A model generated the notes under the pieces. The model was not told where the DNA came from. It did no database searches and saw only the letters and a program-made list of their open reading frames with translations. This document shows positions 6,516 through 35,000 of a stretch of DNA of 64,000 nucleotides, one piece after another. The first letter of the stretch is position 1. Each line of letters opens with the position of its first letter. A program made the translations under genes and the position numbers. The stretch is from Spizellomyces punctatus DAOM BR117 (taxonomy: Eukaryota): the NCBI GenBank assembly GCA_000182565.2, contig KQ257472.1; one strand, given 5' to 3'.

Positions 6516-6529
6516 CAGGGCTCATAACC
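6516..6529 (-). promoter_or_regulatory. Primer-binding site GGTTATGAGCCCTG (half tRNA-iMet type); also at 9009-9022 and 11116-11129 (+) and 38331-38344 (-)
   Basis: Reverse complement of CAGGGCUCAUAACC, the anticodon arm of fungal initiator tRNA-Met. This is the priming mode of yeast Ty5 and Drosophila copia. Confidence 0.85.
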
Positions 6530-7041: not shown

Positions 7042-8437
7042 TCTGCAAGCCCTCAGGCAGAACAAGCTGTATGCCAACCCCAGCAAGTGCCAGTTCTTCA
7101 AGCAAGAAGTAGAGTTTCTTGGCCATGTAGTCTCACATGAAGGAGTCAAGCTTGACCCCAAGAAAGTGCAGACTGTTCAAGAATGGCCGACCCCCAAGAG
7201 TGTCACTGAAGTCAGACAGTTCATGGGACTAGTGAACTACTTCCATAGCTTTCTGAAGGACCTGGCAAAGCAAGCTGCACCATTGACAGACCTGTTGAGG
7301 AATGACAAGCCCTGGACCTGGTCTGAACCTCAGGAGAAAGCTTTTCAGCAGCTGAAGGATATGGTTACCAAAGCTCCTGTACTCAGACCCTTTGACCCAG
7401 CCTTGCCTACCACTGTCTTCCCTGATGCCTCAGGTTATGCAGTTGGTGCATGGCTTGGACAGGATGATGGGAAAGGCATGAGACCAGTTGCCTACCACTC
7501 CAGGAAGATGGCCCCAGCAGAGACCAGATATGACACCAGAGAACAAGAGCTGTTAGCCATCCATGATGCCCTCAGAGTTTGGAGGCCCTACTTGGAAGGA
7601 ACCCCCTTCAAAGTTATCTCAGACCACCAGTCCCTCAAGTGGCTACAGAACCAGCCCTTCTTGACCAGAAGACAAGCCAGATGGGTCATGAACTTCCAAT
7701 CTTTTGACTTTGAGATTGGTTATGGCCCAGGAAGACTCCACATAGTGGCAGACATCCTGTCTAGAAGACCAGACTTGGTCCCAAGATGCATCAAGTGCAA
7801 GGCCTTAGTGACAGCAGAGTTGAATGCTGTAACCCACACCACCAGCACCCTTCAACAGAGATTGAAGACCAGTACCATAGAAGATCCAGAACTGCAAGAG
7901 CTCATCCAAGCTTTGGATGACCCCAAGAGACCAGAAAATCAGCAACAAAGGCTCAAGTACCTCAGACATGAAGATGGGTTGCTCTACTTTCAAGATAGGA
8001 TCTTTGTCCCCAATGACCAAGACCTAAGGTTGAGCCTACTCCAAGAAACCCATGACACTCAGTATGCTGGACACTTTGGCATCACCAAGACCCATGATGC
8101 CCTAGCAAGGCATTACTACTGGCCAAGGATGTACAAGGACATTAAGAAGTATGTCAAGTCTTGTGATTCCTGCCAGAGAAGCAACCCTGGTCAGCAACCA
8201 CCAGCAGGCTTGCTGCAGCCCCTCCCAGTACCTAAGACCAGATGGAGCCAGATCTCCATTGACCTGATCCCTGACCTACCTATGACTTCCTCTGATCACA
8301 ATGCCATCTTTGTCATTGTTGACAGATTGTCAAAGAGAGGCCACTTCATCCCTACCACCAGCAGAGCCTCAGCCAAGAACCTGGCCCTGCTCTTCTTGAA
8401 GCACATCTTCAAGCACCATGGCCTCCCAGAAGTGATT
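7042..8437 (+). mobile_element. Gypsy-B pol fragment (end of RT, RNase H, integrase N-terminus)
   Basis: Homologous to the minus-strand Gypsy-B pol (~19,760-21,155). Motifs PDASGYAVGA, GHFG...CDSCQ, ISIDLI. Bounded by Copia-A on both sides. Confidence 0.93.
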
Positions 8438-10603
8438 CTTAAACTTTGTGGTAAAATGGGTCTCTGTCGGAAATCAGATGATTCACTGAGTGGGAGTGTT
8501 GAGATTCAGGCTTAAACCACGCTGTATTTTCTATAAATCATGTGAGATCATGCTGGGATGTCATTAGACAGTTCACATCTGATTTGGCTAAGTTACAACG
8601 TGGGGAATTGGACTTAGAGTAATCAGAATGATCACAGACGCGTGTGGAATGATTTAAAGGGGTAAATCATCATGTAAGCACTCTTAGAAGGTCTGGAAGG
8701 TTTGTGATGATCTAGATCTTCAGGTAATGTTTGCCAAGGCATGGCTGAAGCTGCTGAGCACTGCTGAGCACGGCTGAGCATGTAAACAAGTGGGCTGAAA
8801 AATGTAAACAGTAAACAAAGGCGGAGCGAGGCTGGAGAATGTACTGGGTTATATAAAGGGGGCTTTTGAATGTCTCTGGATTAATACAAGTGTGTTATCC
8901 CACAAGTTACTGCACCCAGAAGTCTTACTAGCGGCCACAGGCATTACTAGGCCTTTCAGAAGTGATTTCTACACAGGAAATCAGTGTTCCAAGCGCTAAG
9001 TTTCAATAGGTTATGAGCCCTGATAGCTGTCACTGATATTTTCCTGCTTCAAATCTCTTTTCTGACAGCCACACCATCTTCCTGACGGACCTATCTTCTT
9101 CCCAACCTCATATTTGGACCACCTACCATACCAGGATGATTTCACCTCTTCCCCAACAACAAATCCACTCACCAAATCAGCTCAGACATGTCAAACACGG
9201 ACTTGGACACCAAACTCACGATGGAAAAGTTCAATGGCGTGAACTACCACCTCTGGAAGTTCAAAATGACGATGTTGCTGAAGGAAAAGGGGCTGTGGGG
9301 TGTGATTGAGGGGGATGAGAGCATGGAGGGAACCTCTGAGAAGGATTGGAGGAGAAGGGATGAGTGGGCAATGGCTGTAATTACTCTGTCACTGAGTGAT
9401 GCCCAACTCATGCATGTACAGACCGCTGTAACTGCAAAGGAGGCCTGGTTAAAGCTCAGTGACATCCACCAAAGGAAGGGAATTGCCAGTAGGCTCTATC
9501 TAAGGAGGAAATTTCTCACTCTGAAGATGGAAGATGGCACTGGGGGCATGCTGGGACACATAAACATGGTCAGGACAATGGGTCAGCAGTTGGAGGCCAT
9601 TGGGGCGCCAGTCAGTGAAGAAGACCAAGTCATCACCCTACTCTACAGCCTACCAGAGAGTTATGAACAGCTGGTGGTGTCTTTGGAGGCCAGGAGTGAT
9701 TCTCTGATGCTGGAATTCCTCACATCATGGCTTTTGCATGAAGAAACACGCAGGAAGGAAGCTGGGGGTGAAGGAGATAGCAAAGGGAAGGCCTTTTTCA
9801 GCAGGGATGGCGGGCAGAAGGTTGGCAAGCATGGTGGGACCAAGAAGATAGCAGGGAAGTGCTTCTATTGCAACAAGAAGGGTCACTTCAAGAAGGACTG
9901 CAGGAAGTTTCTGGCGGACACTAAACAACAAGCCAATCAAGCCAGCACCAGTCAGGCAACTCAGAATGAGTTCCTATTCTTTGCTCAGTCAGGAGATGAC
10001 ACCAAAACCTCTCAGGGAGCAGTCTGGTGGATTGTGGACTCGGGTGCCTCACAGCACATGTCACATAGGAAGGATTGGATGACCAATTACACGGAGATGT
10101 CACCAATTCAAGTCCATCTGGCGGACAACAGAACAGTTCAGGCAATAGGGAAGGGCCAGATCACACTTGAGACAGGCAGAAACCGATTCTGTACCCTCAG
10201 AGATGTGTGGTTTGTTCCCAAGCTTGAAAAGAACTTGTTTTCAGTAAGAAGAGCCACTGAAAATGGTGCCAAAGTTGAGTTTGGCAGCAAGGGATGCTGT
10301 ATCAAGACTTCAGATGGCCAGGAAGCAATCCAGGGAACTCTAGGGGGCGGTCTATACATGTTTCATGCAAGAGAACATGCAAACATAGCCTCTGGAATGA
10401 GTTTGGACCTCTGGCATCGCAGGTTAGGACACCTGAATGTCAACAGCATCAAAATCTTGGCTAGGAACCAGCTGGGAAGCGGTCTGGAGGTCAAGAATCA
10501 CACAGAAACATCACCATGTGAAGCCTGTGCCATTGGAAAGATCACCAGGCATCCCTTTCCAAAGGGAGAAGCAGCTAGAGTGGCTCTATTGCTGGGGGTG
10601 GTT
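8438..10603 (+). mobile_element. Copia-A copy 2: 59-bp 3' end with PPT, shared LTR 8497-9008, PBS, gag-PR-IN N-terminus truncated at 10603
   Basis: ORF 9188-10609 ends where the next LTR (TGTTGAG at 10604) interrupts LLGVV|HSD. Confidence 0.93.
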
Positions 10604-13600
10604 TGTTGAGATTCAGGCTTAAACCACGCTGTATGATCTATAAATCATGTGAGATCATGCTGGGATGTCATTAGACAGTTCACATCTGATCTGGCTAAGT
10701 TACAACGTGGGGAATTGGACTTAGAGTAATCAGAATGATCACAGACGCGTGTGGAATGATTTAAAGGGGTAAATCATAATGTAAGCACTCTTAGAAGGTC
10801 TGGAAGGTTTGTGATGATCTAGATCTTCAGGTAATGTTTGCCAAGGCATGGCTGAAGCTGCTGAGCACTGCTGAGCACGGCTGAGCATGTAAACAAGTGG
10901 GCTGAAGCATGTAAACAGTAAACAAAGGCGGAGGGAGGCTGGAGAATGTACTGGGTTATATAAAGGGGACTTTTGAACGTCTCTGGATTAATACAAGCGT
11001 GTTATCCCACAAGTTACTGCACCCAGAAGTCTTACTAGCGGCCACAGGCATTACTAGGCCTTTCAGAAGTGATTTCCACACGGGAAATCAGTGTTCCAAG
11101 CGCTAAGTTTCAATAGGTTATGAGCCCTGATAGCTATCACTGATATTTTCCTGCTTCAAATCTCTTTTCTGACGGCCACACCATCTTCCTGACGGACCTA
11201 TCCTCTTCCCAACCTCATATTTGGACCACCTACCATACCAGGACGATTTCACCTCTTCTCAACAACAAATCCACTCACCAAATCAGCTCAGACATGTCAA
11301 ACACGGACTTGGACACCAAACTCACAATGGAAAAGTTCAATGGCATGAACTACCACCTCTGGAAGTTCAAAATGACGATGTTGCTGAAGGAAAAGGGGCT
11401 GTGGGGTGTGATTGAGGGGGATGAGAGCATGGAGGGAACCTCTGAGAAGGATTGGAGGAGAAGGGATGAGCGGGCAATGGCAGTAATTGCTCTGTCACTG
11501 AGTGATGCCCAACTCATGCATGTACAGACCGCTGTAACTGCATAAGGAGGCCTGGTTAAAGCTCAGTGACATCCACCAAAGGAAGGGAATTGCCAGTAGG
11601 CTCTATCTAAGGAGGAAATTCCTCACTCTGAAGATGGAAGACGGCGCTGGGGGCATGTTGGGACACATAAACACAGTCAGGACAATGGCTCAGCAGTTGG
11701 AGGCCATTGGGGCGCCAGTCAGTGAAGAAGACCAAGTCATCACCCTACTCTACAGCCTACCAGAGAGTTATGAACAGCTGGTGGTGTCTTTGGAGGCCAG
11801 GAGTGATTCTCTGACACTGGAATTCCTCACATCACGGCTTTTGCATGAAGAAACACGCAGGAAGGAAGCTGGGGGTGAAGGAGATAGCAAAGGGAAGGCC
11901 TTTTTCAGCAGGGATGGCGGGCAGAAGGTTGGCAAGCATGGTGGGACCAAGAAGATAGCAGGGAAGTGCTTCTATTGCAACAAGAAGGGTCACTTCAAGA
12001 AGGACTGCAGGAAGTTTCTGGCGGACACCAAACAACAAGCCAATCAAGCCAGCACCAGTCAGGCAACTCATAATGAATTCCTATTCTTTGCTCAGTTGGG
12101 AGATGACACCAAAACCTCTCAGGGAGCAGTCTGGTGGATTGTGGACTCGGGTGCCTCACAGCACATGTCACATAGGAAGGATTGGATGACCAATTACATG
12201 GAGATGTCACCAATTCAAGTCCATCTGGCGGACAACAGAACAGTTCAGGCGATAGGGAAGGGCCAGATCACACTTGAGACAGGCAGAAACCGATTCTGTA
12301 CCCTCAGAGATGTGTGGTTTGTTCCCAAGCTTGAAAAGAACTTGTTTTCAGTAAGAAGAGCCACTGAAAATGGTGCCAAAGTTGAGTTTGGCAGCAAGGG
12401 ATGCTGTATCAAGACTTCAGATGGCCAGGAAGCAATCCAGGGAACTCTAGGGGGCGGTCTATACATGTTTCATGCAAGAGAACATGCAAACATAGCCTCT
12501 GGAATGAGTTTGGACCTCTGGCATCGCAGGTTAGGACACCTGAATGTCAACAGCATCAAAATCTTGGCTAGGAACCAGCTGGGAAGCGGTCTGGAGGTCA
12601 AGAATCACACAGAAACATCACCATGTGAAGCCTGTGCCATTGGAAAGATCACCAGGCGTCCCTTTCCAAAGGGAGAAGCAGCTAGAGCGGCTCTACTGCT
12701 GGGGGTGGTTCACAGTGATGTGTGTGGGCCCATGAAGACACCAAGCCATGGTGGGGCAAAGTACTTTGTCACATTCATTGATGACAAGTCAAGGATGACG
12801 GCAGTTTATCTTCTGAAGGAGAAGAGTGAGGTTCTCAGCAAATTCAAGGAGTTTGAGGCCTGGGCAACCAACTTCACGGGGCAGAAGATCAAAACTCTCA
12901 GATCAGACAATGGGGGAGAGTATGTGGGTGAAGAATTCAAGAAATTCTGCAAACAGAAGGGAATTCAGCAGCAATTCAGCACTCCCTACACACCAGAGCA
13001 GAATGGTGTTGCTGAGAGGATGAACAGGACGCTGGTGGAAATGGGAAGGTGCATGCTGCACCACAGTGGACTCAGCTACAAGTTCTGGGGCGAGGCAATC
13101 ATGACAGCGGCCTATCTCAGGAACAGGAGCCCCACTGCAGCACTCAGCAACCAATCAACACCATTTCAAGATTTTACAGGCGGTAAACCAGATCTCCAGC
13201 ACCTCAGAGTGTTTGGCTGCGTGGCCTACACTCATATTCCAAAGGAAAAGCGGTCAAAACTTGATGAGAAGGCCAAGAAAGCAGTCATGGTCGGCTACAG
13301 CACTCAGAGTAAGGCCTACAGACTGTGGGTACCTGAAATGAACCAAGTTGTCATGTCAAGGGACGTCATCTTTGATGAAAACTTGATGTGGAGCACTCAG
13401 CAGCGACTGCAGAGTGTACCACAGCAAGACCAAGAGCTACAGATGCCTCTGGGAGGGGAGCCTTCATTCTTGGACAACCAAGAAGGGCTAGGGACGGTTG
13501 AAGAGACTCAGAGACCATCCAGCATCACTCCAGACAACTCTTCAGCATCAGAAGATGATGGGGACGACTTCCAGGATGCTGAGGAAGTGCCAGAACTCAG

Positions 13601-15338
13601 CAGGAAGAGTGCCAGATTTCACAAACCACCGGGAGAGTGGTGGATTGCAAAGCCAACTCAGTCAAATCTGGCTTTTGCCTTCACCATTGGGGAAGTTCCA
13701 CAGGAAGAACCCAGCACTCTGGCTGAAGCTAGGACCAGACATGATGCCAAACAGTGGGAGGTAGCTGTCAAAGCAGAATATGACTCTCTGATGGAGAATC
13801 AGACATGGGACTTAGTCAAACTACCACCAGGAAGATCCACAGTTGGCTGCAAGTGGGTTTTCAAGCTGAAACTCAAGTCAGATGGCTCTGTAGAGCGCTA
13901 CAAGGCCAGACTGGTAGCCAAAGGATACTCCCAAGTTGAAGGACTGGACTACAAGGAGACATTTGCCCCAGTAGTCAAGTTTGCAACCATCAGGATGGTC
14001 CTGACACTAGCAGCCATGAAGGACATGGAGATTCAGCAAATGGATGTCAAAACAGCATTCTTGAATGGGACCATTGAGGAGGACATCTACATGGACCAAC
14101 CAGAAGGCTTCACCATGGCAAATGGGCTTGTCTGCAAGCTGAAGAAGAGTTTGTACGGGCTAAAGCAAGCTCCAAGAGCCTGGAACAAAGTCATTGATGG
14201 GCAACTCAAAGAACTTGGCTTTGAAAGGTGTGAATCAGACCACGGGCTGTACATCAACAAGAAGATGGGCATCCACCTTATCCTATATGTGGATGACCTT
14301 ATTCTGGCATCAAAGGACGACCAGGAGTTGTTAAAACTCAAAGAAGAACTCAAGAAGCGGTTCAAGATGGCTGATATGGGCCAGTTAGAGCATTTTCTCG
14401 GCATTCAAGTGGTCAGGGACAGAGCCAACAGGTCAATCTGGCTCTCCCAACAGCGGTACCTCAGTCAAACATTGCAGAAATTCAATATGAGTAACAGCAA
14501 ACCAGTTGCCACACCACTAGAGAATGGCCAGAAGCTCACCAAGGCCATGTCACCACAAACTGAGGCAGAACAGCAAGAAATGAATGGGGTTCCTTTCAGA
14601 AGTGCTGTTGGAAGTCTCATTTATGCAATGCTGGGCACCAGACCAGACATAGCAGCGGCAGTTGGATCAGTCAGCCAGTACCTTTCCAACCCCGCACATC
14701 AGCACTGGATAGCAGTCAAACGGATCATGTGGTACCTGAATGGCACCACAGACCTAGGACTTCAACTGGGTGGCATTCAGAGCAAGTGGGAGCTATCTGC
14801 ATACTCTGATGCAGATTGGGGCGGTGATTTGGACTTCAGGAAGTCTACCACTGGCTTCTTAGTCAAGATTGGCAGCAGCACAGTCAGCTGGCAAAGCAAG
14901 AGGCAACCTACAGTCACTCTATCATCAACAGAGTCAGAGTACATGGCTCTTTGTCAAGCTACCAAGGAAGTTATCTGGTTCAGAACACTTCTAGGCGAGC
15001 TAGGACATCAGCAAAGTGGTCCTACAACATTGTATGGTGACAATCAGGGCGCCATAGCACTTGCCAACAACCCAACACATCATGCAAGGACCAAACATAT
15101 TGATGTGCAGCACCACTTCATCAGACAAGCAGTAGAAGACAAGAAAATCAGCCTCAAGTACTGTCAGACAGAAGAAATGATGGCTGACATTCTCACCAAG
15201 GCTCTACCCAAGACAAAGCACCTTAAACTTTGTGGTAAAATGGGTCTCTGTCGGAAATCAGATGATTCACTGAGTGGGAGTGTTGAGATTCAGGCTTAAA
15301 CCACGCTGTATGATCTATAAATCATGTGAGATCATGCT
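10604..15338 (+). mobile_element. Copia-A copy 3: 5' LTR 10604-11115, frameshifted gag-pol, 3' LTR truncated to 58 bp (15281-15338)
   Basis: LTR, PBS and ORFs 11294-11545 plus 11634-15299. An extra T at 11543 (GCATAAGG vs GCAAAGG in copies 1 and 2) creates a stop and frameshift. Confidence 0.95.
11294..15299 (+). pseudogene. Copia-A Gag-Pol with a single 1-nt insertion
   Basis: Otherwise colinear with the 1334-aa ORF. Retains more consensus-like residues (CGP, DNGGEY, TAAYLRN) than copy 1. Confidence 0.9.
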
Positions 15339-18300
15339 TAGGACTTCAACTGGGTGGCATTCAGAGCAAGTGGGAGCTATCTGCATACTCTGATGCAGAT
15401 TGGGGCGGTGATTTGGACTTCAGGAAGTCTACCACTGGCTTCTTAGTCAAGATTGGCAGCAGCACAGTCAGCTGGCAAAGCAAGAGGCAACCTACAGTCG
15501 CTCTATCATCAACAGAGTCAGAGTACATGGCTCTTTGTCAAGCTACCAAGGAAGTTATCTGGTTCAGAACACTTCTAGGCGAGCTAGGACATCAGCAAAG
15601 TGGTCCTACAACATTGTATGGTGACAATCAGGGCGCCATAGCACTTGCCAACAACCCAACACATCATGCAAGGACCAAACATATTGATGTGCAGCACCAC
15701 TTCATCAGACAAGCAGTAGAAGACAAGAAAATCAGCCTCAAGTACTGTCAGACAGAAGAAATGATGGCTGACATTCTCACCAAGGCTCTACCCAAGACAA
15801 AGCACCTTAAACTTTGTGGTGAAATGGGTCTCTGTCGGAAATCAGATGATTCACTGAGTGGGAGTGTTGAGATTCAGGCTTAAACCACGCTGTATGATCT
15901 ATAAATCATGTGAGATCATGCTGGGATGTCATTAGACAGTTCACATCTGATTTGGCTAAGTTGCAACGTGGGGAATTGGACTTAGAGTAATCAGAATGAT
16001 CACAGACGCGTGTGGGAATGATTTAAAGGGGTAAATCATCATGTAAGCACTCTTAGAAGGTCTGGAAGGTTTGTGATGATCTAGATCTTCAGGTAATGTT
16101 TGCCAAGGCATGGCTGAAGCTGCTGAGCACTGCTGAGCACGGCTGAGCATGTAAACAAGTGGGCTGAAGCATGTAAACAGTAAACAAAGGTGGAGGGAGG
16201 CTGGAGAATGTACTGGGTTATATAAAGGGGACTTTTGAACATCTCTGGATTAATACAAGCGTGTTATCCCACAAGTTACTGCACCCAGAAGTCTTACTAG
16301 CGGCCACAGGCATTACTAGGTCTTTCAGAAGTGATTTCTACACGGGAAATCAGTGTTCCAAGCGCTAAGTTTCAATAGGCAGAAGGTTGGCAAGCATGGT
16401 GGGACCAAGAAGATAGCAGGGAAGTGCTTCTATTGCAACAAGAAAGGTCACTTCAAGAAGGACTGCAGGAAGTTTCTGGCGGACACCAAACAACAAGCCA
16501 ATCAAGCCAGCACCAGTCAGGCAACTCAGAATGAATTCCTATTCTTTGCTCAGTTGGGAGATGACACCAAAACCTCTCAGGGAGCAGTCTGGTGGATTGT
16601 GGACTCGGGTGCCTCACAGCACATGTCACATAGGAAGGATTGGATGACCAATTACACGGAGATGTCACCAATTCAAGTCCATCTGGCGGACAACAGAACA
16701 GTTCAGGCAATAGGGAAGGGCCAGATCACACTTGAGACAGGCAGAAACCGATTCTGTACCCTCAGAGACGTGTGGTTTGTTCCCAAGCTTGAAAAGAACT
16801 TGTTTTCAGTAAGAAGAGCCACTGAAAATGGTGCCAAAGTTGAGTTTGGCAGCAAGGGATGCTGTATCAAGACTTCAGATGGCCAGGAAGCAATCCAGGG
16901 AACTCTAGGGGGCGGTCTATACATGTTTCATGCAAGAGAACATGCAAACATAGCCTCTGGAATGAGTTTGGACCTCTGGCATCGCAGGTTAGGACACCTG
17001 AATGTCAACAGCATCAAAATCTTGGCTAGGAACCAGCTGGGAAGCGGTCTGGAGGTCAAGAATCACACAGAAACATCACCATGTGAAGCCTGTGCCATTG
17101 GAAAGATCACCAGGCATCCCTTTCCAAAGGGAGAAGCAGCTAGAGTGGCTCTATTGCTGGGGGTGGTTCACAGTGATGTGTGTGGGCTCATGAAGACACC
17201 AAGTCATGGTGGAGCAAAGTACTTTGTCACATTCATTGATGACAAGTCAAGGATGATGGCAGTTTATCTTCTGAAGGAGAAGAGTGAGGTTCTCAGCAAA
17301 TTCAAGGAGTTTGAGGCCTGGGCAACCAACTTCATGGGGCAGAAGATCAAAACTCTCAGATCAGACAATGGGGAAGAGTATGTGGGTGAAGAATTCAAGA
17401 AATTCTGCAAACAGAAGGGAATTCAGCAGCAATTCAGCACCCCCTACACACCAGAGCAGAATGGTGTTGCTGAGAGGATGAACAGGATGCTGGTGGAAAT
17501 GGGAAGGTGCATGCTGCACCACAGTGGACTCAGCTACAAGTTCTGGGGCGAGGCAATCATGACAGTGGTCTATCTCAGGAACAGGAGCCCCACTGCAGCA
17601 CTCAGCAACCAATCAACACCATTTCAAGAGTTTACAGGCGGTAAACCAGATCTCCAGCACCTCAGAGTGTTTGGCTGCATGGCCTACACTCATATTCCAA
17701 AGGAAAAGCGGTCAAAACTTGATGAGAAGGCCAAGAAGGCAGTCATGGTCGGCTACAGCACTCAGAGTAAGGCCTACAGACTGTGGGTACCTGAAATGAA
17801 CCAAGTTGTCATGTCAAGGGATGTCATCTTTGATGAAAACTTGATGTGGAGCACTCAGCAGCGACTGCAGAGTGTACCACAGCAAGACCAAGAGCTACAG
17901 ATGCCTCTGGGAGGGGAGCCTTCATTCTTGGACAACCAAGAAGGGCTAGGGATGGTTGAAGAGACTCAGAGACCATCCAGCATCACTCCAGACAACTCTT
18001 CAGCATCAGAAGATGATGGGGACGACTTCCAGGATGCTGAGGAAGTGCCAGAACTCAGCAGGAAGAGTGCCAGATTTCACAAACCACCGGGAGAGTGGTG
18101 GATTGCAAAGCCAACTCAGTCAAATCTGGCTTTTGCCTTCACCATTGGGGAAGTTCCACAGGAAGAACCCAGCACTCTGGCCGAAGCTAGGACCAGACAT
18201 GATGCCAAACAGTGGGAGGTAGCTGTCAAAGCAGAATATGACTCTCTGATGGAGAATCAGATGTGGGACTTAGTGAAACTACCACCAGGAAGATCCACAG

Positions 18301-18368
18301 TTGGCTGCAAGTGGGTTTTCAAGCTGAAACTCAAGTCAGATGGCTCTGTAGAGCGCTACAAGGCCAGA
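15339..18368 (+). mobile_element. Copia-A composite: RNase H end, LTR 15865-16377, then internal region from the zinc knuckle to RT start; cut by Gypsy-B
   Basis: ORFs 15326-15883 and 16353-18473. Copia sequence ends at ERYKAR (18368), where TGTAACAGG begins. Confidence 0.93.
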
Positions 18369-18858
18369 TGTAACAGGCTAGCAGGGACAAGAAGACAACA
18401 GAAAACTAGGGAAGACTTGGTTACTACTTGTTCTTTTCCTTTGAGGGGCCTCAGAGAGGTCCTCTTTTTATAGACAAAGGGGCTGACAAATGCTATATCC
18501 TAACTACCCAATCAGATCTCACCCACATCATCCTAAGCTATTTGTCAGCCTATTGCACCATTTGCAACCAATCAGAACTCATACATGTCATCCTAAACTA
18601 TTTGTCAGCCTATTGCACCATTTATAGCCAATCACAAGTGAGACAAGTCATCCTAAATACACTGTGCCACTTGATTGAAAGGGGCAGATGCCAGTGTGTC
18701 AGGATACTCATCTAATTTAGCCAGAAATGGCTAAATCTGCTTATTTATCTAACTCTGGTCAAATGAATGCTGACACCATCAGCAAAGTCATGTGACCACT
18801 AGTTTGGAACCACATCTAACCAGTATAACCATAGCACTGACAGAAGAATTCTGTCACA
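18369..18858 (-). repeat. Gypsy-B 3' LTR (490 bp)
   Basis: Direct repeat of 24466-25015 minus one 60-bp unit. Confidence 0.95.
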
Positions 18859-18874
18859 CTCCCCCACTTTAAGA

Positions 18875-21800
18875 TTAAGCTCCCTTCTGGGCTAGGAACT
18901 CCTTCAAGATTTCTCTGCCATGGGGTAGCAGGTTTTCTTCTGGTTCCCAGGTGTTCTGAGAGGAGGGATAGCCCTTCCACTTGATGAGGTAGAGATTCTT
19001 CTTCCTTCTAGTCTTGTGGTCAAGAATCTTCTCAACTTCCCAAAACTCTTCTCCTTGCTGGATAGTGGGCTCAGGCTCAGGGGGTACTGGTCTGGTAGGG
19101 AAGTCCTCTGTGGGGTCCAGGTAAGGCTTGAGGAGTCTCACATGGAACACTGGATGAATCTTCATGGTGCTGGGGAGCTCCAGGGTGTAATTCTGAAATT
19201 CATCCTTGGCCTTGATTCTGTAAGGTCCAAGCCAGGGGTGAAGAAGTTTCTGGGCTGGCCTCTGGGCTTCTTCTTCTGGGGTGATACCTTCTCTAGATAG
19301 CCAAACTTTGGAGCCTAGGGGGTAGCTTGGGGCCTTGCTGAGAGACTTGTTGGCTTGCTGAACTTGTCTTTCTTGGGCCAGTATCATGTTATCCTTGGCT
19401 ACTTGAAGCAGTTGCTGAATATACTGGTGGAAGTCTGTTGCTTCAGGATCATTGCTTTCTCCTGGTGGTGTTGCTGGGGTCCTGGGATGCTGGCCATTCT
19501 CCAAGTAGAATGGGGTGAAGCCTGTGGTTTCTGAGATGCTGCTGTTGTAGGCAAACTCAGCAAAGGGGAGAAGATCTTCCCAATTCTTCATGTTGTACTG
19601 CAGGAAAGCTCTGAGGTAGATCTTCAAAGTCTTGATGGTTCTCTCTGCCTGTCCATTGGTCTGCTGGTGCCTTGCAGTGGCTAGGAGGGTGTTGCAGCCT
19701 AAGAGTTGCATCAAGTTGGACCAGAATGAACTGGTGAACTTGGTGTCTCTGTCTGATACAATCACTTCTGGGAGGCCATGGTGCTTGAAGATGTGCTTCA
19801 AGAAGAGCAGGGCCAGGTTCTTGGCTGAGGCTCTGCTGGTGGTAGGGATGAAGTGGCCTCTCTTTGACAATCTGTCAACAATGACAAAGATGGCATTGTG
19901 ATCAGAGGAAGTCATAGGTAGGTCAGGGATCAGGTCAATGGAGATCTGGCTCCATCTGGTCTTAGGTACTGGGAGGGGCTGCAGCAAGCCTGCTGGTGGT
20001 TGCTGACCAGGTTTGCTTCTCTGGCAGGAATCACAAGACTTGACATACTTCTTAATGTCCTTGTACATCCTTAGCCAGTAGTAATGCCTTGCTAGGGCAT
20101 CATGGGTCTTGGTGATGCCAAAGTGTCCAGCATATTGAGTGTCATGGGTTTCTTGGAGTAGGCTCAACCTTAGGTCTTGGTCATTGGGGACAAAGATCCT
20201 GTCCTGGCAATAGAGTAACCCATCTTGATGGCTGAGGTACTTGAGCCTTTGTTGCTGGTCTTCTGGTCTCCTGGGGTCATCCAAAGCTTGGATGAGCTCT
20301 TGAAGTTCTGGGTCTTCTGTGGTACTGGTCTTCAATCTCTCTTGAAGGGTGCTGGTGGTGTGGGTCACAGCATTCAACTCTGCTGTCACCAAGGCCTTGC
20401 ACTTGATGCATCTTGGGGCCAGGTCTGGTCTTCTAGACAGGATGTCTGCCACTGTGTGGAGTCTTCCTGGGCCATAGCCAATCTCAAAGTCAAAAGATTG
20501 GAAATTCATGACCCATCTGGCTTGTCTTCTGGTCAAGAAGGGCTGGTTCTGTAGCCACTTGAGGGACTGGTGGTCTGAGATAACTTTGAAGGGGGTTCCT
20601 TCCAGGTAGGGCCTCCAAACTCTGAGGGCATCATGGATGGCTAACAGCTCTTTTTCTCTGGTGTCATATCTGGTCTCTGCTGGGGCCATCTTCCTGGAGT
20701 GGTAGGCAACTGGTCTCATGCCTTTCCCATCATCTTGTCCAAGCCATGCACCAACTGCATAGCCTGAGGCATCAGGGAAGACAGTGGTAGGCAAGGCTGG
20801 GTCAAAGGGTCTGAGTACAGGGGCTTTGGTGACCATATCCTTCAGCTGCTAAAAAGCTTTCTCCTGAGGTTCAGACCAGGTCCAGGGCTTGTTATTTCTC
20901 AACAGGTCTGTCAATGGTGCAGCTTGCTCTGCCAGGTCCTTCAGAAAGCTATGGAAGTAGTTCACCAGGCCCATGAACTGTCTGACTTCAGTGACACTCT
21001 GAGGGGTGGGCCATTCTTGAACAGTCTGCACTTTCTTGGGGTCAAGCTTGACTCCTTCATGTGAGACTACATGGCCAAGAAACTCTACTTCTTGCTTGAA
21101 GAACTGGCACTTGCTGGGGTTGGCATACAGTTTGTTCTGCCTAAGGGCTTGTAGAACCTGCTTGAGGTGGTCCAGGTGGTCTTCTGGGGTCTTGGAGTAG
21201 ATGAGGATATCATCTAGGTAGACAATGACAAAGATGTCCAAGAAGGGTCTAAGGACATCATTCATCAAAGTCATGAAAGTGGCTGGGGCATTGGTCATTC
21301 CAAAGGACATGACCAGGAACTCAAAGTGACCATATCTGGTTCTGAAGGCTGTCTTGGGGATGCCTTCTGGGTGGACTCTGATCTGGTAATAGCCTGACTT
21401 CAGATCTAGCTTGGTAAACACCTGGGCTCCATTCAGCCTATCCATCAGCTCATCAATCCTAGGGAGGGGATATCTGTTCTTGATGGTGATTTTATTCAGA
21501 GCCCTGTAGTCCACACACATCCTCAAAGAACCTTCTTTCTTCTTAACAAAGAGGATAGGTGCTCCAAATGGGCTCTTGGATGGTCTGATGTGGCCTGCCT
21601 CCAGAAGCTCTGAAAGCTGCTTCCTCAGTTCTTCTAACTCCAAAGAGGAGAGGTGGTAGGTTGGTCTCCAGGGGGTCTGGTTGGGGTCACTGAGTTCAAT
21701 TCTGTGATCTACTGATCTCTCAGGGGGAAGTCCTGGGGGAAGCTCTTCAGCAAAGACATCTTGATAGTTTTCAAGAAGCTTGGTGACTTTGGAATCCATG

Positions 21801-22995
21801 GTGTCTGGAGGGGTGCTGGTATCTTGAGGGTTCTTGAGATACACAGCAAAAGCTGTTGCTGTCCTCTTCTTCAGTGTTCTGGCCAACATCTTTGCTGATA
21901 CCATGGTGATAAGATTGGACTTCTGGGATTTGTTGGAAGAGCTGGCCTGCTTAACAAACCATCTGACTCTGGGGTGCTGGAAGGTGGTGAAGGACACAGT
22001 GTTCTTGTTGTAGTTGATACTGGGATTCCTCCAGGCAAACCAAGGTATACCCAGGATCAAGTCAAACTTGATTGGGGCTACTATAAAGTCTGACTGTTCA
22101 GTGTAGGTTCCTACTGAGTACTGAAGACCTTTGACAAAGCCTATTTCTTGGTGCTTTCTGTCATCAGCCATAGAGATTTCTGCTCCAGGGAGAGAATGAG
22201 TCACCAGTTGTGGTGCCTTCTTGACAAAGGACTGTGACACATAGAGCTGGTTTGCCCCATTATCCAGGAGATTGGTTACTGGGATTCCTTGGATTATACC
22301 TTGCACAGTTAACAAGTGACTCTGGGGAATCCTTGGCCCTTTGGGGGTACTTAAAGAGTATGGAGCCACCTCTACTACATGGATCTTGCTTTCTTGGTAG
22401 GTGGTCTGGGTGGTCTGGGGTTCTGGGGTTCTCTGGGGTTCCTGGGTTTCCTGGGGTTCTAGGATTCTCTGGGGTTCTGGGGTTCTCTGGGGTTCTTGGG
22501 TTCTCTGGGGTTCTGGGGTTCTCTGGGGTTCTTGGGTTCTCTGGGGTTCTTGGGTTCTCTGGGGTTCTTGGGTTCTCTGGGGTTCTTGGGTTCTCTGGGG
22601 TTCTTGGGTTCTCTGAAGTTCTTGGGTTCTCTGGAATTCTGGATTCACTGGGGTTCAGGGGTTCTCTGGGTTTCTGGGGTTCTCTGGGGTTCTGGGATTC
22701 TCTGGGTTTCTGGGGTTCTCTGGGTTTCTGGGGTTCTCTGGGATGCTGGGGTTCTCTGGGGTTCCAGGTAAAGTCCATGGATAGTTAAAGTCTCAGGGGT
22801 GGTTTCAGGTGGGTCCAATAGGTCCAAGGGTTGAATAACAGGAGAGTGTACCAGGTAGTGGGTGTCAGGGTGGTGGTTCTTGATATCTTCCCCAGTAGAG
22901 GCAGAACCTCTATCTTCTACTGAGTCTGCTTGCCATTTCCCTGCTGCTTGGTCTTCAAGGGGCATAGGGGGGCAATATGGCCTGGTTTTCTGCAC
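18875..22995 (-). pseudogene. Gypsy-B pol (repeat linker, PR, RT, RNase H, IN, chromodomain) with a frameshift at ~22648 and an in-frame TAG at 20849
   Basis: [50 protein letters not shown]...TWEPEENL. The TAG at 20849 is CAG in the 7042-8437 copy. Confidence 0.92.
22400..22770 (-). repeat. 18-bp coding minisatellite (~20 units; [12 protein letters not shown])
   Basis: Plus-strand units such as GGGTTCTCTGGGGTTCTT repeated. Confidence 0.95.
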
Positions 22996-23866
22996 CGGAA
23001 ACAGGCTCCCTTCTTTCTGAGCTCAGTCTTCTCAGCCTCAGTGAGTTTGGAGAGAGGCTTCCCAGAGTTGGTGGATATACTATCTATCTCCATAGGGACT
23101 ACTCCAGAGTTCTCAGTCTTTGGGGAGTAGTAGCTGGTGGCCTGGCTTCTTCTCTGGTAGCTGAACTGGATCTGGTCAATCCTATCCGCTGTTGCTGCAG
23201 CTGTGGCTAAGTTGATGGTACTGGTGGGGTTGAGCTCCAGTTGTTCCTGAACCCTGGGTTTAAGCCCTCTGATAAACTTGTCTAACTTTTCAGCTTCTGA
23301 CAAGTCATCCACCTGAAGGCATAAAGTATTGAACTGGTTTAGGTACTCCTTTACTGAGCCTTGTTGTTTGAGCCTGGCCAACTGGTCTCTTGCTGCTCTG
23401 GTGGCATTTGCTGGGAGGAAGTTCTCTTGAAGGGCTCTCTTGAACTGGTCCCAAGACTGGATTCTGAGAGGGGATCCTACTGGGTGGTTCTTGACATGGC
23501 TTTGCCACCAGACTTCAGCATGGAGTTCCAAGTAGGTGGTGGCTACTAACAGTTGGCCTTCTGGTGATAGATCTGCAGCTGCCTGGAAGTACTCTTCAAG
23601 TCTGAGGAGGTATGTCCTAATCTCTTGGACATTCCTGTTGCCTTTGTAGGGCTTCAACTTGCTTTGGAGGACTTTTACCAGGGATTTATCTACTCTGGGT
23701 TGGTACTGAGCAGTGGCTGGTGTGGTGGAGTTCAGCTGCTGGAGCTTTGCTTGATAAAGCTCCTGCCTGACCTGGTCTATGTCAAGCTCAGCAATGGTGT
23801 TGAAGTGACCTGGTCTATGTCAAGCTCAGCAATGGTGTTGAAGAGAATCTCTTCCTGGCTGGTCAT
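22917..23866 (-). pseudogene. Gypsy-B gag with CCHC knuckle, frameshifted by a 38-bp tandem duplication (23768-23843)
   Basis: Removing one duplicate restores MTSQEEILFNTIAELDIDQVRQELYQ...SKLKPYKGNR. Knuckle CFRCRKPGHIAPLC. Confidence 0.88.
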
Positions 23867-23897
23867 GGTGGTAATGGGGTGGAGTCTTGGGTAGTTA

Positions 23898-24058
23898 CAA
23901 TATTACTTGTAACAACAACAATAGGGTGGGTCACAGGCCCAAGAGATGCAATGTTACTTGCAGTCAAGATAGGGTGGGTCACAGGCCCAAGAGATGCAAT
24001 GTTACTTGCAGTCAAAATAGGGTGGGTCACAGGCCCAAAATATGCAATATTACTTGCA
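23898..24058. repeat. 48-bp tandem repeat (~3.3 units) in the Gypsy-B 5' leader
   Basis: ATAGGGTGGGTCACAGGCCC recurs at 23921, 23969 and 24017. Confidence 0.9.
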
Positions 24059-24465
24059 AGTACAACTGGTGGGGAGGATACAGGGGGACTCTACAGCTTC
24101 TTCACAATCCCACAATAGAAAAACTCTATCTGTTTTCTCAGAGCTTCTGATGCTAACCAAGTGGTGTGTTTGGTGGTAGTTCTGGAGGTTGTGCTGGGGG
24201 TAGGTTTGTGGTATGGGGTGGTGTGGGCTGGTCTGTAGGAGTCCTTGAGGGGGGGTTCTGGGCATAAGTTGGGTCTGGGATAAGAGGCAGGGGTCTTCTG
24301 ATATTACTCAGAAGGACTAAGGCTGGGTCTGGGGTCTGGGGTCTGTTGGTCTTCTGATATTACTCAGAAGGTCTAGGGCAGGTTCTGGGGGTCTGGGGAT
24401 CTTAGCTTCTGATCTCTCACAGAAGGTCTAAGAGTCTGGGGTTGTTGTCTAAGGTGGTGCTACCA

Positions 24466-25015
24466 TGTAACAGGCTAGCAGGGACAAGAAGACAACAGAA
24501 AACTAGGGAAGACTTGGTTACTACTTGTTATTTTCCTTTGAGGAGCCTCAGAGAGGTCCTCTTTTTATAGACAAAGGGGCTGACAAATGCTATATCCTAA
24601 CTACCCAATCAGATCTCACCCACATCATCCTAAGCTATTTGTCAGCCTATTGCACCATTTGCAACCAATCAGAACTCATACATGTCATCCTAAACTATTT
24701 GTCAGCCTATTGCACCATTTGCAACCAATCAGATCTTGTACATGTCATCCTAAACTATTTGTCAGCCTATTGCACCATTTATAGCCAATCACAAGTGAGA
24801 CAAGTCATCCTAAATACACTGTGCCACTTGATTGAAAGGGGCAGATGCCAGTGTGTCAGGATACTCATCTAATTTAGCCAGAAATGGCTAAATCTGCTTA
24901 TTTATCTAATTCTGGTCAAATGAATGCTGACACCATCAGCAAAGTCATGTGACCACTAGTTTGGAACCACATCTAACCAGTATAACCATAGCACTGACAG
25001 AAGAATTCTGTCACA
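24466..25015 (-). repeat. Gypsy-B 5' LTR (550 bp)
   Basis: Abuts PBS TGGTAGCACCACC. Contains 60-bp tandem units. Confidence 0.95.
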
Positions 25016-28000
25016 TGAGGCCAGCGTGGATGGCGGTGATGAGTGCAGGCTGTAATGCCAAATGAAATATGGCCTCTGCCAGTGTTGAGGAGGGTGCAGG
25101 ACTGGCTGGTGGGGTGCACAGCCGTCATCTTCTGCATTCCGACACCCATATTTTGGTCACGGTAAAGCAAAGAAGTGTTTCCGTGCCAAGTAGCCACAAA
25201 AGTGTATCAGCGATGATGTGGAAGCATCCTGGTTTGTGAATGATTGTCATCCATTCGGACCAGTAACTAAGATCGAGGGCCCAGCGGAGGAGCTTTCGGT
25301 TCTCGCCTTTGTATTTGGCAAGCCACAAAAGAGCTCGGTGATCAGTAATGACTGTGAAAGGCAGGCCTTCGAGGTATGGGCAGAGTTTTCCGAGGCCCCA
25401 AATGAGGCATCCGGCCTCGAGTTCGACAGGGGGGGCCTTCTTTTCCAAGGTGGTGGTGCCTCGGGAATGGTAGCACAGCGGGCATTTAGAAGCATCCAGC
25501 TGTAACTGTTCGAGCATGACATTAAATGCTGTGTAGGAAGTGTCACTGTGAAGGGTGTAGGGGAACCCTTTTCTGGGTGCCGCAAGCACTGGAGCTGTTG
25601 TCAGCGCCTGCTTGGCAGCTGTGAAGGCAGAGTTTTGGGAGTCAGTCCATGAAACTTCACACTTTGCGACAAATCTGCACAGACCTTGGTTGGGGTGCTT
25701 GCGAGCAAGGTATCCGACACAAAAGGGGTCAATGGGCAAGTCGGCCAGCAATGATTGGCATAGATTGACTGCTGGTAGGTCTGAGGAGCTAGATTTAGGA
25801 TGTTGCGAAACCTCAAATCGGGCTCCGGTTGCTGTGATTGATGGGGCCACTGCTGTGTCAAGCATGGACAGTGAATTGAGCTTTTCAGTGCCTTTCTTTG
25901 GGTCAGCGTGACCCTTTTTAAGGTCTCGGTATTCACAAATGCCCTCTTGGATAGCATCTTGCAGGGGTCGGATGAGTTCCACGTAGCGAGGGATGAATTG
26001 GGCATAGAACCCCAGAAGACCCACGAAGGACCATAGGTTGCCAATGAATTTGGGTCGTGGCCAATTGACTATGGTTGCAACCTTGTCTGGATTGGTAGCG
26101 AGGCCCTGGGAAGAGGCAACGAAACCGAGGGCCATGAGCTGGTGAAAGAGCCATTGACACTTGTCGAGTCTTAGGGTGAGTTTGGCCCTGGAAAAGCAGT
26201 TGAGCCAGTCCGCAATGGCATCTAGGGCTTCCATAGCTGTCTCCGCTTGTGTATGGATATTGTCGATGAAGTTGTTGATATTTCGCCATTTGGAGGGACC
26301 CAAGGTGTCATCCATCACCCAACAGAAGTGCGAGGGGGCAGTCTTGGGTCTGAAGGGCATGAAAGGTGGTTCGTAGATGCCATTGTGGAGTCTGATTGCG
26401 GGCCATTTGCGTACTGACATATCAGTGATGGCGATTTGGTAAAATCCTTTGTTTGCATCACCTCCTGATATGTATCGGAATGGGACTGCAACGATCCAGT
26501 TCAGGATGTCGAGCATGATGGGAAAGGGATATGGATCCCAGGCCATGCAGTCATTGGCTCAGCAATAGTCAAAGGCTACCCGCGGGGGTTTGTCTGTGTA
26601 GCAAATAATAACAGGATCGCTGGCAAAGGTTACTTTGGTGGTTCGTTTCCACCTCTGAAGCCCCATCATGGTGTCTTGCTCTGTCTCGAGGGCTGTCCGC
26701 TCCAACGGAGAGTACGACCGTGGCCTCAAAAGGGGTGGCAGAGCCAAGATAAATTGAGGTGCATAAGGAATCTTGGTGTAGTTCCCTATGAGATGACCCT
26801 CATAGCTGAAGGCTTGATGGAAGTGTCGTAGAATGTTGATTAGGGCCCAGACCATGGGTTTGGGTCATTTGAGATCGACGTGGAAATGTTCCGCGTCTTT
26901 TAATTGGGCTTCAAAGGCCCCTGGAGCCTTCTCTGTAGAGTTGAGGTTCCATTTGTTCCGAAGTGTCTGCCATTCTTCTTCGGAAATGTTCTCTTCGGGG
27001 TCCGCGACCGAATTATGGGTCGCGGTGGACAGTTTGAGGCCTAACGGGGCCGTTGTGCTAGCAGCAGTGGCCTCAAGAGGGTTTTTGATGAGAAAAGTTT
27101 GGGCTGCCATGCGCATCTGTCCTGTGATTAACATGGTTAATCTAGACTTCTGAGCTTTGGCTTTGGTCAGCCATGGCATTGACACATCCTTCATGAATTC
27201 ACCCTGCTTGGTCTTGTATGGTGTGCTGTGCATGTGATCAGTGTCCAGCTCATCTGTTATGAAGCAAGGGATAAGGATGTCCAGATTCTTGAGTGTCACT
27301 GTGAAACTGGGTAACAGGGGTTCCTGAACCAAGATTTGGAGTTTCAAATGTCCCAGAACATTGTTGGCTAGGATGATGAGAGGTTTCCCATATGCAATGA
27401 CTCAGAAATAGGTGCGGAAAGTCAGGTATTCTCCTCTGCAGCCTCTGAGGGAAGTTTCGAGGTATACTGTCTTGGTAGATGAGATACATCCACCAATGCC
27501 GTTGAAAGCCATCATTTCCGCATCCTGCAAATCGGTTTCGGAGAACAGAAGGCCCTGGTATGTGTCAGAAATCAGAGACTCGCAGGCTCCTGTGTCTAGT
27601 ACCACAGGTGCCCAGAGCTGAGCAATGATGGCTAGTGTCCAGCAAGGCTGCGTTTGGGTCTTGGTCTGGCTTTTGAGTACATCGCCTAAATCTACCATGT
27701 AGAAGGCATTGATAGAAGGCACCGCGACCTCGAAATGGGGCGCGATGTCGTTAATTGTTGCTTCCATAGCCTTGATCAAACTCTCAAAGTGTTCTCTAGG
27801 TTTGTCATTTTGTGGTTTTGTTGGTTTATTCTGGCAAGCAACTTGTTCAATAGCCAGCATGACTATATGCATCCATTCACTCTCTTCGTGTCTTTGGAGA
27901 CATGGATGGTCTTTAATGTGCAGGAATTTGGGGTTTCCACAACGATAATAATAGTCTGAGTGAATGATATTGCCTGTCAGGAGAAATGCCACCAGTTGCA

Positions 28001-32043: not shown

Positions 32044-35000
32044 TCAAGCCCAGTCATTTCCAACAAACCCCCGAAGAACATATTGCTTTTGTTCCATTTT
32101 GGGCTGTTGGGACCTTGCACTCAGGGTTTGTGGTTGGTGTGGGTCTGTTGGGTATGCTTGTATACTTGTAATAGACATCATCCTCGTAAATATATGTTTC
32201 ACATTCTTAATGTTCCATTTTCCAAATCTTGTAAATGTTTGTCTGTCAAATGTGGTGGAGAGGTTCCCAAGTGTTTTTGCTATGTGGGTATCCCTTCCAT
32301 TTGATGAGGAATTGTGGTTTACCGAGTCATCAGCATTGGTCAATAATCTCCTCAACTTCATATTCAGGAATCCCTGTGATATGAACAGGAGGTGGAAGTA
32401 CTATTACATTCCTGTAGTGGTGAGACACTGGGTCTTCATATTTCTTTAGGACACTAACATGGAAGATAGGATATAAAGCAGATAAGCGAGTATCCTGTAG
32501 GTTGAGCTCGTAAGTGTCTGGGTAAGGTCCTTTTGCCTTGACTGTGTAGGGACCAATCCAGCTAGTGGCTAGCTTTGCTGGTTTTCACAGACTAATGTCT
32601 ACCTCAATCCCTTTGCAATTGAGTAGGACCTGGTCTCCTACGGTGAAGGTAATAGCTGTGCATTCTTTGTCATAGTGTTCAGCATATTTATCCTGTAGTT
32701 CCTTCATGCAGTGTTGAATGATTATGGCTATTTCATCCATCGCTTTTTTGATGTCCTTAATCTCATTTCAGTCAATAGGTTTCATTGTTTGGAGTTCTGT
32801 GGAAGTAATGACTCCATCTGCTTGTAAGGGCATCCACCTGATATCTGCCTCGAATGGTGTCAGTCCATGTTGATTCAGGGTGTTGTTCAATGCAAACTTG
32901 AGGAGAGGAAGATACTGTGGCCAATTATCTGCTGCATAGTTGAGGTATGGCCAATATATGGACTTTACTGTCCATATCATCCGTTCACATTTGCCATCAG
33001 TTTGTTGGTGTTGGGCGCTAGCAAATTGGTGTTTTGTACCAAGGATTTTACAGAAGGCCTCAGAGAAATCAGAAAGGGCTTTCGGGTCATGGTCTGTAAT
33101 AAAGATCCTGGATGCTCCTACATTCTTGTAGACTTGGGACAAATATGTCTGTGTGAGATCATGAGCATTGGAAGTTTGGAGTGTTGGTACAAGGATGGTC
33201 TGGCTAGTCAAGTAATCAACAAAACAAAGAATGGCATCAGGTTGGAATCCATGGGTGCTATTGCCTGGAGGCATATAAGTCATATCGAACCCGATCATAT
33301 GCCATTGACTGTTAGGGATTGGTAATGGTTGCAAAAACCCATGCTTCTGTAAAGGGTTCTTGTATTGTTGGCATTCAGGACAAGTCCAAATGTATGCATA
33401 GACATCACATTCAAGGTGAGGCCAATAGAATCTTCATAGAACTTTAGTGAATGTGCATCGTTGACCTTCATGCGAGCCATCTATTAGGCTGTCATGATAT
33501 TGCTGTAAGACTCTAGTACGCTGCATTTCTGGTACATATAGCCAGTCCTTCTCATAAGTTAGGAGGTCATTTTGTATTGCATAGGGTCATAGCCTTGACC
33601 CTAAGGCACAGGCTGGTGTTGTCTTCAACATTTCGATTATCATAAGGGCATAATTATCTTGGCTCAGTGCCTGAATCCCTTCTTCGTGATTGAATGGCAT
33701 TAGTGTGGTCTCAGTGCTGGCGACTAATATGGCTTGCAACTGGATTTGTTGTTGACACTCTGCACATTGGGGCACATAGTGTGGGTTCCTTGAAAGAATG
33801 TCCGCAACATGGTTAATTTGTCCAGGCATGTATTTGATCATCATGTCAAATTGTTGTAATGTTTTAACCCATCCTGCATCTGAAGGTAGATCAGACTTTT
33901 ATGGTCAGTAAAGGTGCGGAAGAAGATACCAATCAGATATGGGTGGTTATGTTTCAAGAACTTGACTAGGGCTAAAAGTTCCTGTTCATGAACTGGATAC
34001 CGTGTCTTGGCAGGCTTCATCTTATGGGAGTAAAATGAGACTAGTCATAGATGGGGTAGTGCTTTAAGTTCTTGGATGGTTTTTGGCAATGGAGATGGTA
34101 TCTCATCTTCTGGGTCTGTGGTCTGGGCTAGCCATCCACCAATTGTGAATCCTGATGAATCAGTGAAGATGAAAGTGTCTTTGGTCAGGTTGAAGGTCAC
34201 CAGGATGGGTGCAGTGGTAATAGCATTTTTGATCTTTTTGAATGCCGCTTTTTCTTCCTCTTTCCATTGCCATGTTTTCTTTCCAGATTGTAGTTGCAAG
34301 AGGGGCATCATGATTTCTGCATATCAGTTGATGAAGTCAATGAAGTAATTAGTTAATCCTAAGAATCATTGGACATCATGATGGTTTCACAACTCTGGCC
34401 AGTCTTGGACAGCTAGAATCTTGCTTGGAGTGATCCATATGCCATTTCATCCAATAATGTGTCCACAGAACTTGACCTCAGGTTGTCCCCACATGCACTT
34501 GACTGGGTTCACATAGAGTTTGTGTTCAGTTAAGACTCGAAGCACAATATCTACATGCTTCTGGTGTTCCTCCATTGTCCTGGAGAATACCAGGATGTTG
34601 TCGAGGTAGGCGAGGACTAGGTCATCATAATGTGGGCTGAGGATCTTGTTGATGAGGCACTGAAATGCAGCTGGAGTGTTAGTTAATCTGAAAGGCATCA
34701 CAAGATACTCAAAGTGTCCAAATTGTGTATGAATGGCAGTCTTTTCCACATCATGTGGGTTTATTCTAATGCGATGGTAAGCATCTTTGATGTTGATACT
34801 CATGAAGAACTTTGCACCAGCTACACAATCTCGCATCTCCTGTAGATTTGGTAGCAGGGTCCAGTCCTTTTTGGTTACAGCATTTAGTCCTCGATAGTCT
34901 AAACATACTTGTAATCCCCCATCCTTCTTCTTGGCAAACACTATCTGGGTTCCCCAGGGGCTAGTGGAGTGTTGTATTCATCCTTTTGCTAGGAGGTCAT

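Follow-up and report, generated by a model that had tools for sequence, protein, structure and literature searches.

Chromodomain-bearing Ty3/gypsy long terminal repeat (LTR) retrotransposons of fungi include MAGGY and Tf1. CpG methylation is regarded as the ancestral defense of eukaryotes against transposons at the DNA level, and the counter-moves of transposons are much less clear. Methylation-driven depletion of CpG is known from vertebrate L1 elements and endogenous retroviruses, from CpG-poor gammaherpesviruses, and from the CpG hypermutation of transposons in Pucciniomycotina, with CpG values of about 0.1 to 0.4. Repeat-induced point (RIP) mutation of Ascomycota prefers CpA, comes in bursts, and destroys reading frames. 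In this study, we examined a window of 64 kb from contig KQ257472.1 (assembly GCA_000182565.2) of the chytrid fungus Spizellomyces punctatus DAOM BR117, with all coordinates given as window positions. At 18369-25015 on its minus strand lies an element of 6647 nucleotides (nt), a young, almost intact copy of a Ty3/gypsy chromovirus (Metaviridae) that is essentially free of CpG.

Exact counting agreed with the preliminary description of this locus, which had reported only two CpG dinucleotides, at 22996 and 23187, in a sequence of roughly balanced composition (G+C, 0.484). Base composition predicts 382.5 (observed/expected ratio [o/e], 0.0052; GpC o/e, 0.77), and 72.7 would be expected at the level of the neighboring Copia family (o/e 0.19; P[≤2] = 7.5e-29). 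The deficit is real and far beyond chance. It stops at the borders of the element, with the closest outside CpGs at 18354 and 25025, and the three longest CpG-free intervals of the window (4642, 1838, and 1280 nt) all belong to the element's family, the fourth measuring 702 nt. TG and CA are in excess (o/e 1.19 and 1.45, respectively). The non-coding LTR and leader sequence (1702 nt) contains no CpG versus about 15.7 expected at the Copia level (P = 1.5e-7).

The depletion is equally visible in codon usage. Across the three open reading frames, arginine is encoded by 94 AGR codons (AGA or AGG) and one CGN codon (CGG), every CGN codon of pol having been replaced, and a single NCG codon is present. 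Both remaining CpGs lie in gag, one in the CGG and one in a GCG codon. At codon junctions, third-position C before G is absent and T before G occurs 130 times, while before A, C, or T the third position reads C 531 times and T 151 times. Read as an equilibrium, these third positions imply that C>T is favored before G by more than ~150-fold (95% bound); the same estimator yields ~20-fold for Copia (18 versus 140; 340 versus 131) and ~1 for Gypsy-C, a second chromovirus of the window. The conserved protein motifs are present with their arginines encoded by AGG or AGA, as had been described.

Several observations place the loss before the insertion of this copy. The two LTRs differ at 3 of 491 aligned sites and by one 60-bp repeat unit, and none of the three differences is of the CpG type. 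A second copy of the family, a fragment at 7042-8437, had been described as diverged and devoid of CpG; it turned out to be 96.9% identical to the element (43 of 1396 sites differ) and to carry one CpG (7188), which came from a C>G change. No site among the 43 differences pairs TG in one copy with CA in the other. The two copies show a ratio of nonsynonymous to synonymous divergence (dN/dS) of 0.147 at a dS of 0.094 (27 synonymous and 15 nonsynonymous differences; Fisher P = 2e-9). Only 1 of the 43 differences creates a CpG versus 7.9 expected (P = 0.0018), and because new CpGs are under-represented between the copies, the CpG-free state is still maintained in the lineage. Since both LTRs lack CpG at three mismatches and the second copy shares this state, the loss is family-wide and older than both this copy and the divergence of the two copies. 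The Gypsy-C LTRs provide a control: their non-CpG divergence is alike (2 of ~513 sites), yet each holds 37 CpGs and the pair shows 14 CpG-transition differences. As they retain most of their CpG at similar divergence, an element bearing CpG at insertion would still hold most of it.

DNA contigs from three sequencing runs (X1, X9, and X10) cover the element. Among the variants listed, the 24 inside the element include none that creates a CpG. Of the 13 in the Copia flank, 7 do so, all of them drawn from the 10 variants with C or G at a site where the window carries T or A. A further 206 variants lie beyond those listed. At the protein level, the element was aligned with 120 homologues and Gypsy-C, and the 102 sequences with enough columns were ranked. 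Of 433 conserved columns, the element departs from the consensus at 73 (16.9%, against a median of 16.7% for the ranked sequences), and it retains arginine at 27 of 35 conserved arginine columns (median among homologues, 80%), with R>Q/H/C/W changes at 2 of the 35. Replacements of the CpG-decay type (R>C/W/H/Q, A>V, T>M, P>L, S>L, V>I/M, A>T, D>N, E>K, and G>S/R) numbered 11 in the forward and 4 in the reverse direction; the resulting share of 15.1% of differences ranks 87th of 102. It leans slightly toward such changes but stays inside the 5-95% range (5.1-19.3%), and we do not take it as decay. The excess of such changes that post-insertion decay would leave, as named in the preliminary description, is thus not seen. 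Its proposal that CpG was lost in the replicating lineage under purifying selection, and not by decay of this copy, is supported by the CpG-free LTRs, the state shared by two copies, their low dN/dS, and the ordinary divergence from the consensus. Natural mutation and selection can recode an element this far: every C-G codon junction is changed, as are all arginine codons but one (94 of 95), at no measurable protein cost.

Like the described fungal chromoviruses, the element has the full order of gag, protease, reverse transcriptase (RT), RNase H, integrase, and chromodomain between LTRs (Table 1). The integrase follows RT on the minus strand, the order expected of Ty3/gypsy elements. Pfam matches in gag were Retrotrans_gag (E = 5.3e-20), Ty3_capsid (E = 6.8e-14), and, under the curated cut-off, zf-CCHC (E = 0.0048). 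In pol they comprised RVT_1 (E = 9e-43), RT_RNaseH (E = 8.9e-33), Integrase_H2C2 (E = 1.2e-23), and SH3_Tf2-1 (E = 4.4e-12), together with RVP_2 (E = 8.2e-4) and rve (E = 4e-5), both under the curated cut-off. The chromodomain (PF00385 Chromo; E = 3.2e-19) occupies residues 603-652 of the 657 in the last frame. The element differs from other chromoviruses in its CpG content (o/e 0.005, compared with 0.845 as the median of 80 related loci from metagenomes) and in an 18-nt repeat array encoding PQRTQE units before the protease. Gag and pol are interrupted by one TAG codon (20849-20851) and by one extra frame change near 22650. The second copy and an X1 contig (20851 A>G) have CAG at this codon, so that the TAG is a private, non-CpG C>T change. 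According to the translations and the junction sequence, the bridging frame and the pol frame encode the same repeat peptide, for which reason the second frame shift, near 22648-22655, looks like an indel in this copy.

In sense orientation, the LTRs run from TGTGAC to GTTACA. Their U3 parts contain three or four 60-bp tandem units (18508-18807 and 24605-24964), the number being unequal between the LTRs. Every unit includes CCAATCAG (plus strand), which reads as an inverted CCAAT-like motif in the sense orientation of the element. No target-site duplication is present, the flanks reading CCAGA (18364-18368) and TGAGG (25016-25020). On the left, the element borders a Copia interrupted at position 3266 of its own sequence; on the right, it borders another Gypsy. 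At both breakpoints, contigs of run X1 read on into unbroken Copia and Gypsy sequence. The missing duplication and the different flanking elements suggest that this copy may have arisen by recombination between two insertions or through an assembly join, which bears on its history and not on its family membership.

A retrotransposon nest occupies the left 47 kb of the window. CpG o/e is 0.13-0.3 in the transposon-rich parts and 0.7-1.0 from ~46 kb on, where host gene fragments lie. The families themselves span 0.005-0.85. Among the Copia copies, 26 of 65 inter-copy differences are CpG-to-TpG/CpA changes, 21 of the 26 in one direction, which gives a rate of CpG transitions relative to changes at other sites (k) of ~19 (confidence interval [CI], 11-32). 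The copy at 10645-15338 retains 11-21 CpGs that other copies show as TpG/CpA. As these losses are common to several copies, with frames of 1253-1350 amino acids (aa), CpG losses are inherited along an active Copia lineage. The Gypsy-C LTRs differ at 16 of 601 sites, 14 of which are CpG transitions (k ~41; CI, 9-370), and thus cleanly record CpG-specific mutation that took place after insertion. Gypsy-D, a degraded element, has CAA and CAT codons (Q and H) at chromovirus arginine positions in its motifs at 34447-34977, as CpG decay in place predicts and in keeping with the destructive CpG loss noted earlier for this element. CpG transitions in the host's other transposons are thus ~20-40 times faster than changes at other sites. 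This genome removes CpG from transposons in a manner consistent with methylation-linked deamination, and a passage of a published report (PMC12695648) describes 5-methylcytosine in S. punctatus as confined to transposons.

We consider it rather probable that the lineage was purged by methylation-driven erosion of CpG in an active chromovirus, filtered by purifying selection, before this copy arose. The host would methylate CpG in its transposons, 5-methylcytosine would deaminate to T, and each genomic copy would thus shed CpG between rounds of retrotransposition, new copies being founded only by those whose losses are silent or tolerated. Over many cycles, third-position C before G would become T, NCG codons would turn into NCA, NCT, or NCC, and CGN arginine codons would be exchanged for AGR. 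Because AGR codons could not be hit once gained, the lineage would ratchet toward zero CpG, and the end product would offer no substrate for CpG methylation or CpG-specific mutation. The benefit of this end state may itself have driven the last steps of the loss.

Such erosion would resemble the known cases of methylation-driven depletion in that CpG was lost as TpG/CpA, in that CpG-specific transitions occur in the host's other transposons (14/16 in the Gypsy-C LTRs and 26/65 in Copia), and in that the loss is a lineage property compatible with function. It differs in depth, at 0.005 versus 0.1-0.4 and with every CGN arginine codon of pol replaced, and in that families at o/e 0.005, 0.19, and 0.85 stand side by side at one locus. 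With RIP, the locus shares repeat-directed C-to-T mutation that removes a dinucleotide from transposons, but the mutations here fall on CpG, leave frames and conserved residues in place, and go with a dN/dS of 0.15. The avoidance of CpG in a replicating, RNA-borne genome that keeps its proteins also recalls ZAP-like sensing of RNA viruses and retroviruses; this is an analogy and not evidence, as the depletion of the element is much stronger and extends into the U3 part of the LTRs, and we know of no ZAP-like sensor in fungi. Term searches of fungal papers on methylation and RIP turned up next to nothing about chytrids; a fungus-wide RIP survey (PMC12543289) returned no "CpG" and one mention of Chytridiomycota, in another context. 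Word matching in open-access text found no report of an intact CpG-free transposon family, which is weak evidence of absence. CpG-poor transposons are already known; the present locus adds a new and experimentally useful case, in which an intact chytrid element with essentially no CpG lies next to families that are eroding or rich in CpG.

Several points weigh against erosion by mutation and purifying selection as the whole account. From the dinucleotide counts of the element, a mutation-only equilibrium predicts 12-35 CpGs at k values of 20-40, and a k of roughly 80-100 or more would be required to reach 2. Likewise, the third-position bias of more than 150-fold exceeds the ~20-fold obtained for Copia of this genome. 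The measured bias thus predicts a weaker depletion than the element shows, although the CI of the Gypsy-C estimate extends to 370, so that mutation alone may suffice. Smooth erosion also does not obviously predict that, among 86 related loci, none lies between o/e 0.000 and 0.129. Gypsy-C has a chromodomain and is yet CpG-rich, so that residence in heterochromatin alone does not explain the difference between the families. Furthermore, the two LTRs of the element may stem from two insertions, in which case their similarity would reflect that between copies and not age, and the methylation step is drawn from the report on S. punctatus and the mutation spectrum.

A possible but less likely explanation is that positive selection on the element drove at least the last CpG losses, copies with fewer CpGs being less methylated, silenced, or mutated and leaving more daughters. 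It would account for a depletion that exceeds the mutation-only equilibrium at the measured k of 19-41, for the high implied bias, and for the complete lack of CpG in the non-coding parts. Relatives of the element bear on this as well. Homologues with E ≤ 0.001 numbered 1436, the named ones from fungi and a charophyte alga; the nearest protein relative (P0001, from a metagenome contig) is 63% identical and the next ones are ≤47%. CpG content was compared among 80 metagenome loci encoding relatives (32-45% identical) and six loci from a viral collection. The metagenome loci have a median o/e of 0.845, with 6 of the 80 below 0.3 and a single one (L016) below 0.1, the other 79 being at ≥0.20; the six viral-collection relatives range from 0.129 to 0.999, and none is CpG-free.

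L016 contains no CpG in its relative-coding region of 1917 nt (o/e 0.000) and one in the whole metagenome contig (1-6870; 6870 nt) versus 360 expected. It is intact, with a gag frame and an uninterrupted pol of 1391 aa. Its arginine codons are 64 AGR and 0 CGN, and at codon junctions C before G occurs 0 times versus 247 for T before G. The contig ends overlap by 126 nt (1-126 = 6726-6851), as in the circular assembly of a repeated element, and the protein occurs in identical form on 7 contigs of ENA assemblies (P0241). Its closest named relatives are proteins of the ascomycete Berkeleyomyces, which at 57-58% identity are too distant to name the host. In a FastTree phylogeny, the element and P0001 form a pair (support, 0.999), with L042 and L003 (o/e ~0.84) nearby, and L016 falls in another major clade beside L017 and L036 (o/e 0.58). 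As the two belong to different clades, the CpG-free state arose at least twice, L016 having reached it while fully intact. We tentatively raise the idea, which we think has perhaps one chance against several, that some chromoviruses have evolved full avoidance of CpG as a stealth strategy, at least two times independently, in the element's family and in L016.

The depth of the depletion, the convergence with L016, and the empty range between 0.000 and 0.129 encourage this idea of adaptive escape, which is plausible and unproven. A near-CpG-free, unmethylated element should cease to lose CpG, so that escape predicts a low plateau and not zero, and the wide CI of the Gypsy-C k (9-370) permits mutation alone. 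Nor is an expression advantage apparent, as RNA depth is ~0 on the element as on its neighbors in run X24, which carries the same species label and of which ~6% was read: 79 reads fell on 9.8 kb, with a depth of ~0-0.3 on the element. A spike at 20549-20661 (depth ~4) shows fixed differences (20578 A>C in 19/19 reads) and unmatched ends on both sides, so these reads stem from another, transcribed sequence related to the RNase H region and not from the element. The X24 reads weigh neither for nor against expression of the element. In summary of the earlier interpretation, loss in the lineage under selection stands, and escape from host defense as its cause is unproven, since the pattern would equally result from mutation pressure with purifying selection. 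On chemical grounds, CpG methylation has no site in an element that lacks CpG. The chromodomain may still target it to heterochromatin; the domain is present and the copy lies in a transposon nest.

If selection for stealth did act, CpG-free families should be unmethylated, transcribed when conditions are permissive, and the most recently active in their genomes, and the element would be unmethylatable and immune to CpG-directed mutation where CpG methylation is the host's only DNA-level transposon defense. One genome sets a CpG-free family (0.005), an eroding Copia (0.19), and a CpG-rich Gypsy-C (0.85) side by side, the last two visibly losing CpG. The locus thereby permits a direct test, in a culturable and transformable chytrid group, of whether methylation, silencing, and mutation load scale with element CpG and whether an element with no CpG escapes.

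Import of the composition by horizontal transfer, from a donor with an almost CpG-free genome or transposons, appears improbable. It would fit the distance of the element from its nearest protein relatives, the presence of parts of it in metagenome runs from soil, rhizosphere, and roots as well as under a second organism label, and the range of o/e values (0.005-0.85) among families of one window. On the other hand, the host erodes CpG in its other families, and two copies under purifying selection at a dS of 0.094 stay CpG-free with new CpGs at 1 versus 7.9 expected, so that the state is maintained in this host whatever its origin.

Loss of CpG after insertion, by methylation-linked or RIP-like decay, or a sequencing or assembly artifact is very improbable: neighboring elements do decay in place and the element has one stop and one frameshift, but these readings are contradicted by its near-identical LTRs without CpG, the agreement of a second copy and of independent short-read contigs from three runs, arginines kept as AGR and not turned into C, W, H, or Q, a stop (CAG>TAG) that is no CpG change, and another CpG-free element (L016) in an independent metagenome assembly.

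Table 1. Features of the CpG-free chromovirus and of neighboring retrotransposons in the 64-kb window
Feature	Position	Strand	Description
5' LTR	24466-25015	-	550 bp; TG...CA ends; 0 CpG; one 60-bp unit more than 3' LTR
Putative primer-binding site	24453-24465	-	Adjoins 5' LTR; begins TGG; called from position and TGG start
Leader 48-nt tandem repeats	23898-24084	-	Untranslated; from repeat search
gag frame	22917-23819	-	300 aa; capsid domain and CCHC zinc knuckle
Bridging frame	22645-23022	-	-1 relative to gag; enters PQRTQE repeat
18-nt tandem repeat array	22372-22800	-	Encodes PQRT(Q/P)E upstream of protease; one unit spaced 17 nt
Protease and RT frame	20852-22654	-	601 aa; RT domain ~21068-21547
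In-frame TAG	20849-20851	-	Between RT and RNase H; private to this copy
RNase H, integrase, and chromodomain frame	18875-20848	-	657 aa; H2C2 zinc finger, core, SH3; chromodomain ~18893-19042
Polypurine tract	18859-18870	-	Abuts 3' LTR upstream; called by position and composition
3' LTR	18369-18858	-	490 bp; 0 CpG
Second copy of the element's family	7042-8437	+	Fragment: RT end, RNase H, integrase start; one CpG (7188); CAG at TAG site
Copia family, five copies/fragments	~239-18368		CpG o/e 0.14-0.23; two copies with 1350- and 1253-aa frames
Copia copies	239-1852, 1901-7000, 8538-10603, 10645-15338, 16377-18368		97.5-99.4% identity
Gypsy-C, chromovirus with chromodomain	38374-47265		CpG o/e 0.85; LTRs 38374-38974 and 46665-47265, LTR o/e 1.06
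Degraded Gypsy elements	25-37 kb		CpG o/e 0.2-0.5
Gypsy-D, degraded Gypsy	32261-35142	-	G+C 0.42-0.43; CpG o/e 0.2-0.25

Within the Copia part of the nest, the segment at 15339-16328 is 100% identical to the end of the copy at 1901-7000. The host-gene part of the window contains a dynein intermediate-chain exon (55857-56357, minus strand), which is 84% identical to S. punctatus, followed by other chytrids at 62-66%; this homologue search places the host near Spizellomycetales, and a protein-atlas search gave generic WD40 clusters only. A 209-aa frame lies at 53918-54547.

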